From: a virus | Direction: 5' to 3' (one strand) | Length of the DNA stretch: 64,000 nucleotides | UHGV virus genome: UHGV-0038498 | In this document: one piece after another, positions 5,850 to 13,660 of the stretch | Numbering within the stretch: the stretch's first letter is position 1 | Layout: each line of letters begins with the position of its first letter | The notes under the pieces: model-generated | What the model was told of the DNA's origin: nothing | Database searches by the model: none | What the model saw: only the letters and a program-made list of their open reading frames with translations | Made by a program: the position numbers and the translations under genes

Positions 5850-6300
5850 ATTAGAGATTAGAAGCAATTTTAAATGGCCATCATGTGCATTAAGTAATTT
5901 CGCCCAATGGCCTTTCGTTATGGATGGCATTCAATTTGGAGGTCTCGAAGGATTCCTCCAAGGGTGTAAGGTGAAAAATGTTGAACAGCAAAGACGTATA
6001 TTTGGGTTATCCGGGCTTGCCGCCCAACAAGCTGGAAGGTCTTATGCTAGAGCTCAGGACCGTGGGACGTTGTTCTGGCTTGGAGTTCCGTTTTCAAGAT
6101 ACTCTCCGGCGTGGAAAGAATTATACACAAATGCATATTTTGAAGCAGCGTTCCAAAACAAAGGCTTTCGCGATGCATTACAAGCCTCGAAAGGAAAAGT
6201 TTTGAAGCACAGCATGGCTAGTGGTCTAACAAAAGATGATACAATACTAACCGAAGCTGAATTTATTGATGTGTTAAACCTATTAAGAGACTCTCTATGA
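5842..6300 (+). CDS. NADAR/YbiA-like (DUF1768) protein
   Basis: Motif LSNFAQWPFVMDG resembles the FSNFAxWP..DG core of YbiA/NADAR proteins; 152 aa. Confidence 0.55.
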   Translation: MSELEIRSNFKWPSCALSNFAQWPFVMDGIQFGGLEGFLQGCKVKNVEQQRRIFGLSGLAAQQAGRSYARAQDRGTLFWLGVPFSRYSPAWKELYTNAYFEAAFQNKGFRDALQASKGKVLKHSMASGLTKDDTILTEAEFIDVLNLLRDSL

Positions 6301-7160
6301 AGCCTACTATTTTAACTGATATTGATGGAGTATGTTTAAGCTGGCAATCAGGTCTTCCTTATTTTGCTCAGAAATATAATCTTCCGTTAGAACATATTTT
6401 AAAAATGATCCAAGATGAGAAATTTATTTCTCCAGGTAAACTCTTTAATTGTGATGAAGAACTCGGTGTCAAGCTAATTGAAAAATACAATCGATCAGAT
6501 TTTATTCGTTACTTGTCTCCATATAAAGATGCCCTGTGTGTAATTAACAAATTAAAAGAAGATTATAATTTTGTAGCTGTTACAGCATTGGGTGATTCTA
6601 TTGACGCTCTGCTGAATCGTCAATTTAATTTGAATGCTCTTTTTCCTGGTGCCTTCTCAGAAGTAATGATGTGTGGTCATGATTCTTCAAAAGAAGAGTT
6701 ATTCAAAAAGGCAAAAGAGAAATATAACGTAATTTGTTATATTGACGATCTTGCTCACCACTGCGATCATGCGAGTGAAATATTAAATGTTCCGGTTTAT
6801 TGGATGGCTCGAGGAGAGCGTGACAATATTCCAAAAACTGCGCAGCGAGTTTATACATGGAATGATGTAGAAAATAAGCTTTTTTCACCGAAGGAAAATA
6901 AAGAAAGTTTTGATAGTGAAAAAGCTATAAAAGATGTAATTGAGAAGATGGTTAAAAACGATTCTTTTCGTTGGAACACTACCTGGAGAACTCCTGGATT
7001 TAATCCGTATAATCCATATTATACACATCCATATAATCCATATTATACACACCCGTATCATATGAATCCATTCCATACGTGGAGTTATACTAAGCCTGGT
7101 GATGCAGGGTATTTTAATAGATTTACTAGTGGTGATAATATTTTCCAAGGAGCATTCTAA
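6297..7160 (+). CDS. HAD-like protein with C-terminal Tyr/Pro-rich repeat tail
   Basis: N-terminal ILTDIDGV resembles HAD motif I; C-terminal NPYNPYYTHPY repeats; 287 aa; position of T4 30.2. Confidence 0.5.
   Translation: MKPTILTDIDGVCLSWQSGLPYFAQKYNLPLEHILKMIQDEKFISPGKLFNCDEELGVKLIEKYNRSDFIRYLSPYKDALCVINKLKEDYNFVAVTALGDSIDALLNRQFNLNALFPGAFSEVMMCGHDSSKEELFKKAKEKYNVICYIDDLAHHCDHASEILNVPVYWMARGERDNIPKTAQRVYTWNDVENKLFSPKENKESFDSEKAIKDVIEKMVKNDSFRWNTTWRTPGFNPYNPYYTHPYNPYYTHPYHMNPFHTWSYTKPGDAGYFNRFTSGDNIFQGAF
7008..7054 (+). repeat. 24-bp direct tandem repeat inside ORF 6297-7160
   Basis: TATAATCCATATTATACACA at 7008-7027 and again at 7032-7051; encodes YNPYYTHP twice. Confidence 0.7.
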
Positions 7161-7429
7161 TGTTTGTCGTTCACACTATTTATGAAAATGAAGGTAATAC
7201 TACACGCGATTACGGTCACGTGAATCAATTTTTTAGATGCAATCCAGAATTCCGAGCTCAAAAAGACGAACGAATTTTTAAAAAATGTGTAGAGCAAGGT
7301 TTCATTTATATCAAGCACTGGATGCAAGGAAATAAAGTTAGAACTACATATCATAGGTCTTTAACTGAGCTTAATGATGAATTGATTTATAATAGAGCTG
7401 TAAATCAAACTCTGAAGGATGAACAATGA
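7160..7429 (+). CDS. hypothetical protein (89 aa)
   Basis: ORF immediately upstream of ligase; stop overlaps ligase start. Confidence 0.5.
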   Translation: MFVVHTIYENEGNTTRDYGHVNQFFRCNPEFRAQKDERIFKKCVEQGFIYIKHWMQGNKVRTTYHRSLTELNDELIYNRAVNQTLKDEQ

Positions 7430-8889
7430 TTCTTAAAATTCTGAATGAAATAGCATCTATTGGATCAACTAAGCAGAAGCAAGCAATTCTTGAAAAGAAT
7501 AAAGATAATGAATTGCTTAAACGAGTATATCGTCTGACTTATTCTCGTGGGTTACAGTATTATATCAAGAAATGGCCTAAGCCTGGTATTGCTACCCAGA
7601 GTTTTGGAATGCTGACTATTACCGATATGCTTGACTTCATTGAATTCACGTTAGCTACTCGGAAATTGACCGGAAATGCTGCAATTGAGGAATTGACTGG
7701 ATATATCACCGATGGTAAAAAGGATGATGTTGAAGTTTTGCGTCGAGTGATGATGCGAGACCTTGAATGCGGTGCTTCAGTATCTATTGCAAACAAAGTT
7801 TGGCCAGGTTTAATTCCCGAACAACCTCAAATGCTGGCAAGTTCTTATGATGAAAAAGGCATCAGTAAGAATATCAAATTTCCAGCTTTTGCACAGTTAA
7901 AAGCAGATGGAGCTCGGTGTTTTGCTGAAGTCCGAGGTGATGAATTAGATGATGTTCGTCTTTTATCACGAGCTGGTAATGAATATCTAGGATTAGATCT
8001 TCTTAAGGAAGAGTTAATCAAAATGACTGCTGAAGCCCGCCAGATTCATCCAGAAGGTGTGTTAATTGATGGCGAATTGGTATACCACGAGCAAGTTAAA
8101 AAGGAACCAGAAGGCCTAGATTTTCTTTTTGATGCTTATCCTGAAATTAGTAAAGCTAAAGAATTCGCCGAAGTAGCGGAATCTCGTACTGCTTCTAATG
8201 GAATCGCCAATAAATCCTTAAAAGGAACCATTTCCGAAAAAGAAGCTCAATGCATGAAGTTTCAGGTCTGGGATTATGTCCCGTTGGTAGAAATATACGG
8301 TCTTCCGGCGTTTCGTTTAAAATATGATGTACGTTTTTCTAAACTAGAACAAATGACATCAGGATATGATAAAGTAATTTTAATTGAAAACCAGGTAGTA
8401 AATAACCTAGATGAAGCTAAGGTAATTTATAAAAAGTATATTGACCAAGGTCTTGAAGGTATTATTCTCAAAAATATCGATGGATTATGGGAAAATGCTC
8501 GTTCAAAAAATCTCTATAAATTTAAAGAAGTAATTGATGTTGATTTAAAAATTGTAGGAATTTATCCTCACCGTAAAGACCCTACTAAAGCAGGTGGATT
8601 TATTCTTGAATCAGAGTGTGGAAAAATTAAAGTAAATGCTGGTTCAGGCTTAAAAGATAAAGCCGGTGTAAAATCACATGAACTTGACCGTACTCGCATT
8701 ATGGAAAACCAAAATTATTATATTGGAAAAATTCTAGAGTGCGAATGCAACGGTTGGCTAAAATCTGATGGCCGCACTGATTACGTTAAATTATTTCTTC
8801 CGATTGCGATTCGTTTACGTGAAGATAAAACTAAAGCTAATACATTCGAGGATGTATTTGGTGATTTTCATGAGGTAACTGGTCTATGA
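7426..8889 (+). CDS. 30: ATP-dependent DNA ligase
   Basis: 487 aa; N-terminus MILKILNEIASIGSTKQKQAILEK... and adenylation motif region (FPAFAQLKADGARCFAEV) match remembered T4 DNA ligase. Confidence 0.95.
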   Translation: MILKILNEIASIGSTKQKQAILEKNKDNELLKRVYRLTYSRGLQYYIKKWPKPGIATQSFGMLTITDMLDFIEFTLATRKLTGNAAIEELTGYITDGKKDDVEVLRRVMMRDLECGASVSIANKVWPGLIPEQPQMLASSYDEKGISKNIKFPAFAQLKADGARCFAEVRGDELDDVRLLSRAGNEYLGLDLLKEELIKMTAEARQIHPEGVLIDGELVYHEQVKKEPEGLDFLFDAYPEISKAKEFAEVAESRTASNGIANKSLKGTISEKEAQCMKFQVWDYVPLVEIYGLPAFRLKYDVRFSKLEQMTSGYDKVILIENQVVNNLDEAKVIYKKYIDQGLEGIILKNIDGLWENARSKNLYKFKEVIDVDLKIVGIYPHRKDPTKAGGFILESECGKIKVNAGSGLKDKAGVKSHELDRTRIMENQNYYIGKILECECNGWLKSDGRTDYVKLFLPIAIRLREDKTKANTFEDVFGDFHEVTGL

Positions 8890-9074
8890 AAGCTTACTTA
8901 GAAACAATTGTCGTTGCTCAAAAAGAAGGTGAAGATGTTTCTACTTCTGTATCACAAATTATGATTGAATTTATAGATGCATATGCTTATAATAAATTCA
9001 CAGAAACATTTGATGCCTATGAAAAAGGTCCAAAGTTTGAAATATATCGTACTCTCTTACCAATAGATTATTAA
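8886..9074 (+). CDS. hypothetical protein (62 aa)
   Basis: Small ORF overlapping ligase stop; followed by terminator hairpin. Confidence 0.4.
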   Translation: MKAYLETIVVAQKEGEDVSTSVSQIMIEFIDAYAYNKFTETFDAYEKGPKFEIYRTLLPIDY

Positions 9075-9095
9075 AGGCCTTCGGGCCTTTAATTT
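9075..9095 (+). terminator. rho-independent terminator
   Basis: Hairpin AGGCC-TTCG-GGCCT followed by TTAATTTT. Confidence 0.6.
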
Positions 9096-9103
9096 TATAA
9101 ATA
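9096..9103 (+). promoter_or_regulatory. late promoter (TATAAATA) for alt
   Basis: Exact TATAAATA 21 nt upstream of alt ATG, after terminator hairpin. Confidence 0.65.
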
Positions 9104-9123
9104 GAATAAACACTAGAGAGGAT

Positions 9124-11220
9124 ATGATGGAACTCATTACAGAATTATTTGACGAAGATACTACTCTTCCGATTACAAACTTAAATCCAAAGAAGAAAAT
9201 ACCGCAAATTTTTTCAGTTCATGTTGATGACGCAATTGAACAACCAGGATTTCGTTTATGTACCTATACATCTGGAGGTGATACTAATCGCGATTTAAAG
9301 ATGGGCGATAAAATGATGCATATTGTTCCTTTTACATTAACTGCTAAAGGTTCAATTGCTAAATTAAAAGGTCTCGGTCCAAGCCCAATTAATTATATCA
9401 ATTCAGTTTTTACTGTTGCGATGCAGACGATGCGTCAGTATAAAATTGATGCATGTATGCTCCGTATTCTTAAGTCTAAAACTGCTGGTCAAGCTCGTCA
9501 AATTCAACTTATTGCTGATAGACTTATCCGTAGTCGCTCAGGTGGCAGATACGTCCTTCTTAAGGAACTCTGGGATTACGATAAAAAGTATGCATATATT
9601 CTTATACATCGCAAAAATGTATCATTAGAAGACATTCCAGGAGTTCCTGAAATTAGTACCGAGCTCTTTACTAAAGTTGAATCGAAGGTCGGTGATGTTT
9701 ATATCAATAAAGATACTGGAGCTCAAGTAACTAAAAATGAGGCAATTGCAGCATCTATTGCGCAAGAAAACGATAAACGTTCTGACCAAGCTGTAATCGT
9801 TAAAGTTAAAATTTCCCGTAGAGCAATTGCACAAAGTCAGTCATTGGAATCTTCTAGATTTGAAAGTGAATTATTCCAGAAGTATGAATCTACTGCAGCT
9901 AATTTCAATAAACCTGCTACCGCTCCTTTAATTCCCGAAGCGGAAGAAATGAAACTTGGAATTAATTCACTAGCTTCTAAAACTAAGGCAGCAAAAATCA
10001 TTGCCGAAGGAACTGCAGATGAACTTCACTATGATTATAAATTCTTTTCAAAAAGTGAGGTTAATGAAGTTTCTGAAAAAATTAAAGATGTAATTCTTAA
10101 TGCGATTAAAAATGAACCAACTACTTCAATAAAATGTTTAGAGAAATACGCAGCAGCTATTAATAAATTCTTTGAAGAATACAAAGATACTTGGCTTGAT
10201 AAACATAATAAAACCCGTAAAGGACAGCCAGATGAAGTTTGGGAAGAAATAACTAAAAATTCCTGGAACGCAGCAAAAACTAAATTCCTCAAACGAATGA
10301 TTTATAGCTTTTCTGGAATTGGTGCAGGTCCAATGATTGATATTACTATTGCCCGTGATGGTTCGAAATATACTCCATCACAAAAGCGCGGCATTAGAGA
10401 GTATTGTGGTTCAGGATATACTGACATCAATAATCTTCTTTTAGGACGCTACAATCCAGAACGATATGATGTAATGAGTGAAAAAGAAATTGAATCTGCT
10501 ATAAATAACTTAGATTCAGCTTTTGAAAATGGTGACCGTATACCGGAAGGCATTACAGTTTATCGTGCTCAAAGTATGACTGCTCCTATATACGAAGCAT
10601 TAGTTAAAAATAAAGTGTTCTATTTCAGAAATTTTGTATCTACTTCTTTAACTCCTATCATTTTTGGACGTTTTGGAATTACACATGCTGGTATTGGTCT
10701 TTTAGAACCAGAAGCTCGTAATGAATTAACAGTTGATAAAAATGAAGAAGGAATAACTATTAATCCAAACGAAATAAGAGCGTATAAAGAAAATCCTGAA
10801 TACGTTAAAGTTCAAATAGGATGGGCAATTGATGGAGCTCATAAAGTTAATGTTGTATATCCAGGAAGTCTCGGAATAGCAACCGAAGCTGAAGTTATTC
10901 TACCACGCGGATTGATGGTCAAAGTTAATAAAATAACTGATGCTTCTAATAATGACGGAACAACATCTAATAATACAAAACTCATTCAAGCTGAAGTTAT
11001 GACTACGGAAGAACTCACCGAATCAGTAATTTATGACGGTGACCGTCTAATGGAAACCGGCGAAGTAGTTGCAATGACAGGTGATATTGAAATAGAAGAC
11101 AGAGTTGACTTTGCATCATTTGTTTCATCAAATGTTAAACAAAAAGTAGAATCATCTCTTGGAATTATTGCGTCTTGCATAGATATTACAAACATGCCTT
11201 ACAAGTTCGTTCAAGGATAA
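9124..11220 (+). CDS. alt: Alt-type ADP-ribosyltransferase (capsid-packaged)
   Basis: 698 aa; N-terminal MELITELFD targeting-like sequence; R-S-EXE motifs (VYRAQ, FVSTSL, EAEVILPRG); TATAAATA 21 nt upstream. Confidence 0.85.
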   Translation: MMELITELFDEDTTLPITNLNPKKKIPQIFSVHVDDAIEQPGFRLCTYTSGGDTNRDLKMGDKMMHIVPFTLTAKGSIAKLKGLGPSPINYINSVFTVAMQTMRQYKIDACMLRILKSKTAGQARQIQLIADRLIRSRSGGRYVLLKELWDYDKKYAYILIHRKNVSLEDIPGVPEISTELFTKVESKVGDVYINKDTGAQVTKNEAIAASIAQENDKRSDQAVIVKVKISRRAIAQSQSLESSRFESELFQKYESTAANFNKPATAPLIPEAEEMKLGINSLASKTKAAKIIAEGTADELHYDYKFFSKSEVNEVSEKIKDVILNAIKNEPTTSIKCLEKYAAAINKFFEEYKDTWLDKHNKTRKGQPDEVWEEITKNSWNAAKTKFLKRMIYSFSGIGAGPMIDITIARDGSKYTPSQKRGIREYCGSGYTDINNLLLGRYNPERYDVMSEKEIESAINNLDSAFENGDRIPEGITVYRAQSMTAPIYEALVKNKVFYFRNFVSTSLTPIIFGRFGITHAGIGLLEPEARNELTVDKNEEGITINPNEIRAYKENPEYVKVQIGWAIDGAHKVNVVYPGSLGIATEAEVILPRGLMVKVNKITDASNNDGTTSNNTKLIQAEVMTTEELTESVIYDGDRLMETGEVVAMTGDIEIEDRVDFASFVSSNVKQKVESSLGIIASCIDITNMPYKFVQG

Positions 11221-11223
11221 ATC

Positions 11224-13281
11224 ATGGAACTTATTACAGAATTATTTGACGGCGCTTCGGCGCCGGTTGTTAACTTAAATCCTAAGCATAAAATACCTCA
11301 AATTTTTGCTATTCAAGCCGGCGAAGAAAGTGTGCTTCCTGGATTTAGATTTTGTACATACACCTCTGGCGGTGATACAAATAAAAACGTTAAGCCAGGC
11401 GATAAAATGATGCATATCGTAATGATAGGTGTTAATGAGAAACTATCATTAGTTAAACTTAAAAACTTGGGTGGAAATCCAATTGGTGTCATTAATGCCG
11501 TTTTTGATACTGCTCTTCAAACAATGAAACAGTATAAAATTGACGCATGCTTATTCCGCGTACTAAAAAGTAAAACAAATGGCGCAGCTCGTCAAATGCA
11601 AGTTATTGCTGACCGTTTAGTACGTACTAAAGGAGCAGGTCGATATGTTCTTTTAAAGGAAATCTGGGATTATGATAAAAAGTATGCATATATTATGGTT
11701 TACCGTAAAAATGCCAATTTAGAAGACATTCCAGGTGTACCTCCTATTTCAACTGAGTTATTCACAAAAGTTGAATCAAAGGTTGGTGATGTGTATGTAG
11801 ATGTTAAAACAGGTAATGCTGTTCCTAAAGCTGTTGCTGTTGCTGCTTCTATTGCCTTAGAAAATGATAAGCGCACGGATCAAGCTGTTATTCAGAAAAC
11901 TAAAATTAGTCGTCGATTAGCAGCGCAAGCTCAATATTCTACTGTCGATGCTTCACTACAGAGTGATAGCTTCGCTGCCAAGAAATATCAAGAGTTTGAA
12001 TCTAAAGTTCCGGTACATAAAGCAGAAGGACCAATGAACTCTGGCGTTATTCAGATTGGTTCAAACTTCGGCAAAGGAGCTATCGGTGGTATGAGAAGTG
12101 CTTCTCGTTTTAAATCTAACGATTATGAACTAGAAAGCTTCCGAAATCATATTGCATTGGCCCATGCACGTTTACGTGATCCATCTATCAAGCTGCAGAG
12201 CGATATAACATATCAAGGTTCTCAAGAATATTTAAAGAATAAAGAATTTTTTGATTATAAAACCGATAAAATTTTGAGCGATCTCGCTGACATTAATATT
12301 TCTAATAGCTTTGATGTTATTAAGAAAATTATCAATGATTTAGTTAAAGGTTCTAAAGCTACGCCAGACGAAAAGGTAGCTATTATTCAATTTGTCATGA
12401 ATGGCATTTATAAATTGATTAATGAATCTGCTGCCCAGGCGTATGAATACGCAAGCACCGAAGTAACTCCAAAAGGACTGACTCAGGCTGAGTCTGATGT
12501 AATTGAAGATTATTGTGCAGATTCATATGTTGAAATGAACTCGTTCCTCTTGGGTAAACCAGATTCTACCCGTGAAGAATACATGGAACGAGCTATTAAA
12601 CACATCGAGACAATGGATTCTGCCTTTGCCAAAGGTTCAGTTCTTCCTCCAGGAACTACGCTTTATCGTGGACAAGAAGTTACTTTTAAAACTTTACGCC
12701 ATAATATTGAAAATAAAATGTTCTATTTCAAGAACTTCGTATCAACATCGCTTAAACCAAATATCTTCGGTGAGCATGGTAAAAACTATATGGCTCTAGA
12801 TGATTCCGGCGCAGTATTTTCTGGTGAAGGAGAAGGTTCTGTTGATGCTGAAGATTTAATGCATATGGGTAGTCATTCTGCTTATGCGAATGAAGATGCT
12901 GAAACTAGCGTAGGTATGGTAATTAAAGGGGCTGAGCGAATCAAAGTTATCGTTCCAGGTCATTTATCAGGATTTCCATCAGAAGCTGAAGTTATTCTAC
13001 CGCGTGGAATTTTGTTGAAGATTAATAAAGTAAGCACGTACATGATGAAAGAAACTGCTTATAACAAGTATCTAATCGAAGGCACAATCGTTCCTCCTTC
13101 TGAACAATTAGAAGAATCGGTATATGATGGCGATCATCTAATGGAAACTGGTGAAGTTCGTCCAATGGCTGGGTTTAATCAATTCCTTGTAGAAGAATCA
13201 AAAGAAGAGGAAAACGAAGTTTCTCAAATCTTGGCTTCTTTGGTTAACATCAACGGAATGTCTAAAAAGTTCAAGATGTAG
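11224..13281 (+). CDS. Alt-like ADP-ribosyltransferase paralog
   Basis: 685 aa; same N-terminus (MELITELFD) and R-S-EXE motifs (LYRGQ, FVSTSL, EAEVILPRG); central ~250 aa diverge from upstream copy. Confidence 0.8.
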   Translation: MELITELFDGASAPVVNLNPKHKIPQIFAIQAGEESVLPGFRFCTYTSGGDTNKNVKPGDKMMHIVMIGVNEKLSLVKLKNLGGNPIGVINAVFDTALQTMKQYKIDACLFRVLKSKTNGAARQMQVIADRLVRTKGAGRYVLLKEIWDYDKKYAYIMVYRKNANLEDIPGVPPISTELFTKVESKVGDVYVDVKTGNAVPKAVAVAASIALENDKRTDQAVIQKTKISRRLAAQAQYSTVDASLQSDSFAAKKYQEFESKVPVHKAEGPMNSGVIQIGSNFGKGAIGGMRSASRFKSNDYELESFRNHIALAHARLRDPSIKLQSDITYQGSQEYLKNKEFFDYKTDKILSDLADINISNSFDVIKKIINDLVKGSKATPDEKVAIIQFVMNGIYKLINESAAQAYEYASTEVTPKGLTQAESDVIEDYCADSYVEMNSFLLGKPDSTREEYMERAIKHIETMDSAFAKGSVLPPGTTLYRGQEVTFKTLRHNIENKMFYFKNFVSTSLKPNIFGEHGKNYMALDDSGAVFSGEGEGSVDAEDLMHMGSHSAYANEDAETSVGMVIKGAERIKVIVPGHLSGFPSEAEVILPRGILLKINKVSTYMMKETAYNKYLIEGTIVPPSEQLEESVYDGDHLMETGEVRPMAGFNQFLVEESKEEENEVSQILASLVNINGMSKKFKM

Positions 13282-13333
13282 TTTACAAGTCCCTCGTGTT
13301 GTGTTATAGTAGTTTTACTGACATAACATGAGG
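13281..13333 (+). promoter_or_regulatory. early promoter with inverted repeat around -10; 3' arm overlaps RBS
   Basis: GTTTAC 13281-13286, TATAGT 13305-13310; arms CCTCGTGTT 13292-13300 / AACATGAGG 13325-13333 (one G-U), 3' arm carries GAGG RBS. Confidence 0.55.
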
Positions 13334-13341
13334 AACACAAA

Positions 13342-13632
13342 ATGAAATCTTCTTTACGCTTTTTAGGTCAAGAACTTGTAGTTGAAGGCGTTATTCCTGC
13401 TGATAACGCTTTTAATGAAGCAGTTTATGATGAATTTATCAAAATTTTTGGAACAGATAAAAAGTTCGGAATTTTTCCTTCTGAAAATTTTTCAAAGCCA
13501 GAGCAGACTGAAAGCATTTTCCAAGGTGTAGTAACAGGTAAATTTGAGTCAGAAGCTCCGGTAAAAATTGAAGTTTACATTGAAGACAGTTTAGTTGCTT
13601 CAGTTGCTGCTTTTATTTCATTCCGTAAATAA
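13342..13632 (+). CDS. hypothetical early protein (96 aa)
   Basis: GAGG RBS; early-type promoter 13281-13310; terminator hairpin downstream. Confidence 0.5.
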   Translation: MKSSLRFLGQELVVEGVIPADNAFNEAVYDEFIKIFGTDKKFGIFPSENFSKPEQTESIFQGVVTGKFESEAPVKIEVYIEDSLVASVAAFISFRK

Positions 13633-13637
13633 AAATA

Positions 13638-13655
13638 TGGGGACCTTTCGGTCCC
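13638..13655. terminator. bidirectional terminator hairpin between convergent ORF 13342-13632 and gene 54
   Basis: GGGGACC-TTTC-GGTCCCC flanked by A/T runs on both sides. Confidence 0.6.
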
Positions 13656-13660
13656 CATTG

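Follow-up and report, generated by a model that had tools for sequence, protein, structure and literature searches.

We found two tandem alt genes on the plus strand of a 64,000-nucleotide stretch of the virus genome UHGV-0038498, referred to below as the window. They probably encode two arginine ADP-ribosyltransferases (ARTs) that are expressed late, packaged in the phage head, and injected into the host, where they would have different targets. This reading draws on sequence and on analogy with Alt of phage T4. The first gene (copy 1) is alt in its T2/T6-type allele. It lies at 9127-11220 (+) and encodes 697 aa (698 aa with the start at 9124). The second gene (copy 2) is an intact alt paralog, the full-length counterpart of T4 alt.-1/alt.-2. 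It lies at 11224-13281 (+) and encodes 685 aa. The initial annotation had read the same two open reading frames (ORFs) on this strand, at 9124-11220 (698 aa when counted from the first ATG) and at 11224-13281 (685 aa) with a gap of 3 nt, and both were confirmed. The source of the window is a T4-like phage (Tequatrovirus), and a 4.9-kb stretch has 98% DNA identity to many Tequatrovirus genomes, ECP2301 and ime09 among them.

Judged by sequence, the parts of both proteins that would serve delivery (the propeptides and the N-domain) are constant, and the helical center and catalytic domain between them are variable. This variable block may give each paralog its own set of host targets.

Both copies belong to the Alt family. 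Each has an N-terminal Alt domain and an R-S-EXE domain, and the pair follows a late promoter and is flanked by gene 30/alt.1 on one side and alt.-3/gene 54 on the other. Both span the phrog_802 profile ("Alt-like RNA polymerase ADP-ribosyltransferase") from end to end (positions 2-674 of 674). Copy 1 matches it over residues 1-696 (E = 4.7e-272) and copy 2 over residues 1-685 (E = 1.7e-255). Both also score above the cutoff for Pfam ADPrib_exo_Tox (PF03496), with E values of 2e-37 for copy 1 and 3e-20 for copy 2. An NCBIfam search matched no family to either copy. The Alt N-domain was found in only 69 clusters in an exhaustive search of 1.84 billion representatives. Nearly all of these clusters are Alt-like proteins of 600-712 aa, and the domain is always N-terminal.

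Two further observations concern the family. PF26846 appears in the precomputed Pfam column of all full-length relatives, and the Pfam search of both window proteins gave no match to it. It is presumably a newer model that covers part of Alt. The Alt proteins of the Acinetobacter phages ZZ1 and Henu6 (BFVD I3WW50, A0A410T5F4, and A0A410T542) are annotated as "split RNA polymerase ADP-ribosylase." Their N-terminal part and catalytic part are encoded on separate ORFs.

Copies 1 and 2 are paralogs (BLASTP E = 2e-158) with 42% identity overall. Identity is 67% in the N-terminal segment (residues 1 to ~235-237), 17% in the center (about residues 245-400), 32% in the catalytic (ART) domain, and 41% in the C-terminal tail. 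The 32% figure masks a part that aligns badly. This part lies between the STS and EXE motifs and is a second variable stretch, within the catalytic domain. The STS-to-EXE insert of Alt is ~75-80 residues long. The two copies differ in this insert and in the residues that immediately precede EXE. The shared N-terminal region of ~230 residues in the initial annotation agrees with the 67% identity over residues 1-237. The divergent center that it described is indeed unrelated in sequence, but it is ~175-180 residues long (238-415) and not ~250. The divergence is real, since profile-profile comparison of the two center types gave a probability of 0.9%. An alignment artifact was considered as its source and was ruled out by this HHalign value and by the saturated synonymous divergence between the copies. 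That saturation extends throughout the two genes, and the duplication is therefore old.

The catalytic residues are present in both copies and are invariant in the family. They are R480 and S505 in copy 1, R482 and S507 in copy 2, and E587 and E589 in both. Conservation was surveyed in 47 close relatives and in 57 relatives drawn mostly from representatives of 50%-identity clusters. R482, S507, E587, E589, and the P-R-G that follows (copy 2 numbering) are invariant in both surveys. The motifs reported in the initial annotation were all located. Both copies begin with MELITE (residues 1-6) and contain FVSTSL and EAEVILPRG (E587/E589); copy 1 has VYRAQ (R480), and copy 2 has LYRGQ (R482). The invariant R, S, and E-x-E residues in the 47 and 57 relatives suggest that both copies are catalytically competent, as it had proposed.

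The catalytic domain is structurally similar to solved members of the C3/iota/VIP2-like fold. Copy 1 matches CdtA and iota toxin Ia in the PDB, with the YR and EXE motifs aligned. A single-sequence PDB search with copy 2 gave no match, and a family profile was required. Each copy has E-A-E as its third motif, which lines up with E-Y-E in CdtA and with Q-Y-E in a C3-like enzyme. The E-x-E form is arginine specific in this clade of ARTs, and the Q-x-E form is asparagine directed. The targets of T4 Alt include Arg265 of the RNA polymerase alpha subunit, Arg84 of MazF, EF-Tu, and others (PMC2988021, PMC8120803). The E-x-E of both copies fits the Arg265 and Arg84 targets. Both copies are likely to be active enzymes, by their motifs and by analogy with T4 Alt.

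Each T4 head contains ~40 copies of Alt (PMC9958956, PMC9026906). Mass spectrometry found it processed by the prohead protease gp21 at ITE-6, with the loss of six residues (PMC5694885). A second gp21 cut, at LTE-619, removes 63 C-terminal residues (PMC5694885, PMC9026906). Both sites are kept as predicted sites in both copies, the second of them as an L-x-E ~63 residues from the C terminus. Copy 1 contains ITE-6 and LTE-632. Copy 2 contains ITE-6 and LEE-631, which is followed by SVYDGDHLMETGE. The first 13 residues of copy 2 past the C-terminal cut site (SVYDGDHLMETGE) are almost identical to those of T4 Alt. At the C-terminal site, the P1 glutamate does not vary in either survey (47 and 57 relatives). 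At the N-terminal site, P1 is glutamate E6, which does not vary among the 47 and has a mean pairwise identity of 0.93 among the 57.

The initial annotation took MELITELFD for a targeting or cleavage signal with an I-x-E site. This was borne out, as MELITE is the gp21 site ITE-6 of T4 Alt. It missed the C-terminal gp21 site (L-x-E near residue 631), which is present in both copies. Its proposal that both copies are packageable is consistent with the two gp21 sites conserved at both ends. What it called the shared ends of the two proteins are, by sequence comparison, the two propeptides and the N-terminal alpha/beta domain.

Copy 1 begins with the propeptide MELITE at 9127-9144 (+), which is identical to residues 1-6 of T4 Alt and has a predicted gp21 cut after E6. 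The conserved N-terminal alpha/beta domain (aa 7-237) is at 9145-9837 (+). Its identity is 67% with copy 2 and 99% with T4 Alt, and the AlphaFold model of this domain has a confidence score (pLDDT) of about 70-88. The variable all-helical center (aa 238-412) is at 9838-10362 (+). It is 17% identical to copy 2, and its helices are predicted with pLDDT values of 85-97. The ART domain (aa 413-632) is at 10363-11022 (+) and is the part that matches PF03496 (E = 1.7e-37) and, in the PDB, CdtA and iota toxin Ia. It contains R480 (10564-10566), STS (10639-10647), E587-x-E589 (10885-10893), and LTE-632 (11014-11022), all on the plus strand. The predicted C-terminal propeptide (aa 633-697) is at 11023-11217 (+). 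It is 95% identical to the T4 Alt tail and has low pLDDT.

Copy 2 has the same layout. The propeptide MELITE is at 11224-11241 (+), with a predicted gp21 cut after E6, the residue that is invariant in the 47 relatives. The conserved N-terminal alpha/beta domain (aa 7-237; 67% identity to copy 1) is at 11242-11934 (+). The variable all-helical center (aa 238-415) is at 11935-12468 (+), with pLDDT values of 83-94. The ART domain (aa 416-631) is at 12469-13116 (+) and contains R482 (12667-12669), STS (12742-12750), E587-x-E589 (12982-12990), and LEE-631 (13108-13116), again on the plus strand. The predicted C-terminal propeptide (aa 632-685) is at 13117-13278 (+). It has SVYDGDHLMETGE after L-x-E, as in T4 Alt, and its pLDDT is below 50.

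The center is the least conserved segment family-wide. Its column identity is ~0.10-0.14, versus 0.35-0.5 in the N-domain and ART core. The gathered sequences contain at least three center classes with no detectable mutual sequence relation. These are the copy 2 type, the T2/T6 and T4 type, and the P0017 type. HHalign gave a probability of 0.9% for the copy 1 type against the copy 2 type and 0.5% for the copy 2 type against the T4 type. It gave 99.4% for the copy 1 center (T2/T6 type) against the T4 type and 97.9% for the copy 2 center against a group that contains P0013-P0015. A word-index search with the copy 2 center alone returned one fragment from 59 candidates. Both centers are predicted with high confidence to be all-helical, with 8-9 helices at similar positions. 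This similarity in the models is only suggestive of one shared, diverged domain; the alternative is that one domain was replaced by another. In a BFVD comparison, the Alt model of SP18 gave TM-scores of 0.73 with copy 2 and 0.36 with copy 1 over more than 650 columns, with uncertain domain orientation in the models. The low copy 1 score is probably caused by this uncertainty. It is plausible that the center sets target specificity, as the initial annotation suggested, and it is a candidate recognition region.

By sequence, copy 2 is the intact form of T4 alt.-1/alt.-2 (NP_049810, NP_049809). The pairwise check proposed in the initial annotation found that T4 lacks an intact second copy and keeps a frameshifted remnant of its first ~116 codons. 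According to the T4 GenBank record, alt.-1/alt.-2 arose long ago by duplication of the beginning of alt. The remnant DNA translates to MELITELFDGASAPVV...TSGGDTNK, which is the copy 2 N terminus, and is then frameshifted. The families of the alt.-1/alt.-2 fragments match copy 2 (E = 1e-40 and 3e-38) better than copy 1 (1e-21 and 2e-19). The T4 alignment to the window runs up to 11571 and resumes at 13262. At the junctions, as read from this alignment, the 9-bp direct repeat CTAAAAAGT is present at 11563-11571 (+), the start of the T4 deletion, and at 13262-13270 (+), its end. T4 therefore lost 1,699 bp by a short-repeat deletion that kept one copy of the repeat.

Comparison of copy 2 with its orthologs in AR1 and T2 gave a ratio of nonsynonymous to synonymous divergence (dN/dS) of 0.05 overall and 0.10-0.16 in the center, at a dS of 0.2-0.25. 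This pattern of substitution is that of a working gene under strong purifying selection. T2 and AR1 are among the 402 phage records that contain the copy 2 center at a DNA identity of 90% or greater. The copy 2 protein cluster has 772 member sequences. The copy 1-type center is present in ~317 records and the T4-type center in ~175. About four-fifths of the related genome records contain the second enzyme (402 versus the ~492 that carry either alt allele); these counts include GenBank and RefSeq duplicates. Three clusters of 7-36 sequences (P0006, P0008, and P0010) are 98% identical to copy 2 and start at its internal methionines 62, 158, and 271.

The tandem pair between alt.1 and alt.-3 is also present in T2, AR1, ime09, and the Dhakavirus JS10. 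AR1 contains a T4-type first gene and the same copy 2. Within Tequatrovirus, the gene in the first slot is thus polymorphic, and that in the second is nearly constant. The alt gene of T6 (X69894) and that of T2 have the copy 1 type of center, with 94-95% DNA identity. The Alt versions of JS10 are 46-48% identical to copy 2. The first alt of JS10 has 68.7% DNA identity to the copy 1 center, and its second (P0012) has the copy 2 class of center, with clustering at 60% or more. By these comparisons, each paralog has been retained as its own type since the old duplication.

Copy 1 is, by position and sequence, the ortholog of T4 Alt (gpAlt, 682 aa; NP_049811, UniProt P12726). Its identity to T4 Alt is 99% in the N-domain, 95% in the tail, 30% in the center, and 63% in the ART domain. 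Along the gene, DNA identity to T4 drops at a sharp breakpoint near residue 241, from 98% to ~40%, and rises again at another near residue 619. No DNA match of copy 1 to T4 was found over 9934-10362. The dS between copy 1 and T4 alt is 0.14 in the N-domain, 0.26 in the tail, and above 1.2 in the center and ART domain. The DNA of the copy 1 center is 94-95% identical to that of T2, T6, and RB33. These values point to the copy 1 block (about aa 241-618) as an old, diverged allele that was exchanged by recombination. Rapid evolution in place was considered for the difference between the T4 and T2 types. It was rejected because synonymous sites are saturated in the block and not in its flanks.

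Both genes may be transcribed late. A T4-type late promoter box, TATAAATA, is located at 9096-9103 (+), 23 nt upstream of copy 1. It is an exact match and would serve as the promoter. The window contains 22 TATAAATA late boxes, versus 9.2 expected. T4 alt is preceded by the same box at the same place, and the terminator and start context are also alike. The terminator is a stem-loop after alt.1 at 9075-9095 (+), AAAGGCC-TTCG-GGCCTTT and then AATTTT. It was read from the sequence, and the same element occurs in T4; a simple terminator scan did not report it. Copy 1 has a ribosome-binding site, GAGAGG, at 9116-9121 (+), 5 nt from the ATG at 9127 and 2 nt from the ATG at 9124. The second ATG, at 9127 (697 aa), rather than that at 9124, is the probable translation start of copy 1, because this start gives MELITE as in annotated T4 Alt and copy 2 and has the better spacing to GAGAGG.

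The copy 1 stop codon lies 3 nt before the copy 2 ATG. Copy 2 has its own ribosome-binding site, AAGGA, at 11213-11217 (+), within the last codons of copy 1 (GTTCAAGGATAAATCATGG). The terminator scan found no plus-strand terminator between 9124 and 13637. The first is a bidirectional stem-loop at 13637-13658, found on both strands, between alt.-3 and the convergent gene 54. The simplest reading of this arrangement is that copy 1, copy 2, and alt.-3 are cotranscribed late in infection.

Two other candidate promoters were observed. A second exact TATAAATA box on the plus strand, at 10500-10507, is located inside the copy 1 catalytic domain, ~720 nt upstream of copy 2. The match may have arisen by chance, or the box may act as a late promoter within the gene. 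A sigma-70-like promoter at 13282-13310, between copy 2 and alt.-3, contains TTTACA, a 17-nt spacer, and an extended -10 element, TG-TATAGT (10 of 12 matches). This candidate could give a separate early transcript of alt.-3. The sigma-70 promoter scan showed no enrichment over shuffled sequences, and its hits thus carry little weight.

The proposed mechanism begins with late transcription of both genes from the TATAAATA promoter at 9096, in one message with alt.-3. Both proteins would enter the prohead core by means of their shared N-terminal signal and N-domain. There gp21 would trim both ends, after ITE-6 and after L-x-E-631/632, which would leave mature enzymes of ~625 residues. The mature enzymes would enter the cell together with the phage DNA, and both would carry out NAD+-dependent mono-ADP-ribosylation of arginines in host proteins. 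These steps have been shown for T4 Alt; we infer them for both copies.

Several points weigh against two injected enzymes with different targets. The production, packaging, cleavage, and activity of copy 2 are argued from motif conservation, from selection, and by comparison with T4 Alt. T4 is able to grow although it lacks copy 2, and even its alt is nonessential, which makes copy 2 dispensable on laboratory hosts at least. The N-terminally truncated clusters hint at repeated loss, or at errors of sequencing, gene calling, or assembly. The target sets of the two enzymes could also largely overlap. Specificity could lie in the STS-to-EXE insert or in the residues before EXE as well as in the center. 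In related toxins, the STS-to-EXE region contributes to substrate choice. Copy 2 may be active and packaged and act on essentially the targets of copy 1, kept for dosage or as a backup against host inhibition. We consider such redundancy unlikely. It would agree with the catalytic motifs, predicted processing sites, and N-domain that the copies share, and with T4, which lacks copy 2 and grows normally on laboratory hosts. It agrees less well with centers that have no detectable homology and with ART domains that are 32% identical and have different STS-to-EXE inserts. Each paralog is also conserved as its own type across genera under purifying selection, which is a better fit to separate functions.

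It is improbable that copy 2 is active only inside the infected cell, late, and is not injected. The literature search gave no direct evidence of copy 2 packaging, which would be in keeping with such a role. However, the six N-terminal residues of copy 2 are the T4 Alt propeptide, and the 13 residues after its C-terminal cut (SVYDGDHLMETGE) are almost identical to those of T4 Alt. Neither P1 glutamate varies among the 47 close relatives. Conserved regions that are destined for removal are hard to explain without gp21 processing in the prohead, which argues against a role outside the head. The T4 remnant and the truncated versions in databases could also be signs of a pseudoenzyme or decaying gene, in which copy 2 is heading for loss as in T4 or is only a structural component of the core. 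We regard this as very improbable; the purifying selection on copy 2 is described above. The reading with two injected enzymes and different targets is the one that we prefer.

A broader reading of the locus is possible, and we put it forward tentatively. Injected effectors may be encoded at alt in a cassette system with two slots, in which constant delivery parts flank a swappable block of center and ART domain. The block would occur in several sequence-unrelated classes and would be swapped by recombination in the constant flanks, as with the T4-type and T2-type alleles. If this is true, copy 2 would have its own host target, for example, a defense or toxin-antitoxin protein. Such a target would then have gone unnoticed in fifty years of work on Alt because laboratory T4 deleted the copy 2 gene.

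Copy 1 shares with T4 Alt the late promoter, terminator, start context, R-S-EXE residues, and ITE-6 and L-x-E sites. Copy 2 differs from T4 Alt in that it is 42% identical overall and has a center with no detectable homology to the T4 center. The T4 internal proteins IPI-IPIII resemble Alt in their short N-terminal propeptide, which ends in L/I-x-E and is removed by gp21, and in being packaged in the head and coinjected with the DNA (PMC3012670, PMC9026906). They differ in that they are 8-20 kDa, are present at ~360 copies, and have only an N-terminal propeptide, whereas Alt is large, is present at ~40 copies, and is cut at both ends. T4 ModA and ModB are also phage R-S-E ADP-ribosyltransferases that act on host transcription and translation proteins (PMC2988021, PMC8120803). 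Unlike Alt, they are small, early, and unpackaged, contain no Alt N-domain, and are encoded elsewhere in the genome. The C3-like, iota, VIP2, and Vis toxins contain neither the Alt N-domain nor gp21-cleaved propeptides and have other delivery routes. C3 enzymes have Q-x-E where Alt has E-x-E, and the Alt insert of ~75-80 residues between STS and EXE varies between the paralogs. Packaged effectors of the MuF-fused or polyvalent type have an ART fused to MuF or to other effector domains (Iyer et al., PMC9503650); no such fusion was found in copy 1 or copy 2.

The genes around the pair are those of the T4 alt region. On the plus strand, gene 30 (DNA ligase; 7426-8889) and alt.1 (8886-9074) are followed by the two large ORFs and alt.-3 (13342-13632). 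Genes 54, 48, and 29 lie downstream of alt.-3 on the minus strand and are convergent. The gene order around the alt pair is common to the window, T4, ime09, T2, and AR1. The last gene of the same-strand block is alt.-3 (13342-13632, +). It encodes 96 aa with DUF5498 (Pfam PF17602; E = 1.4e-64), and its position is the same in T4, ime09, T2, AR1, and JS10. Mutations that extend the C terminus of T4 alt.-3 allow escape from the CmdTAC defense by preventing the degradation of CmdA (PMC11618068). The 62-aa ORF alt.1, between ligase and alt, matches the Pfam "Phage blade protein" family (PF24647; E = 1e-27), and its start overlaps the end of gene 30. Farther upstream, a 287-aa ORF at 6297-7160 ends in a short tandem peptide repeat, NPYNPYYTHPYNPYYTHPYHMNPF. 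It lies upstream of 30.1, and we take it, by position alone, to be the counterpart of T4 30.2.

This tandem arrangement of two alt genes is already known, with annotation in hundreds of phage records. Duplications of alt were noted in a genome comparison by Nolan et al. in 2006 (PMC1524935). Our literature search, whose coverage was incomplete, found no study of the second Alt paralog, its targets, or its presence in virions beyond the remark in PMC1524935. Beyond annotation, we observed that T4 is atypical in lacking the second enzyme and that the locus behaves like a set of constant delivery parts around a variable effector block. The textbook account of a single injected ADP-ribosyltransferase stems from T4, which is an exception among its relatives. 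Copy 2 is a reasonable candidate for a role in early host takeover or counterdefense because T4 Alt reportedly acts on RNA polymerase and neutralizes MazF, and the candidate recognition region of copy 2 differs.

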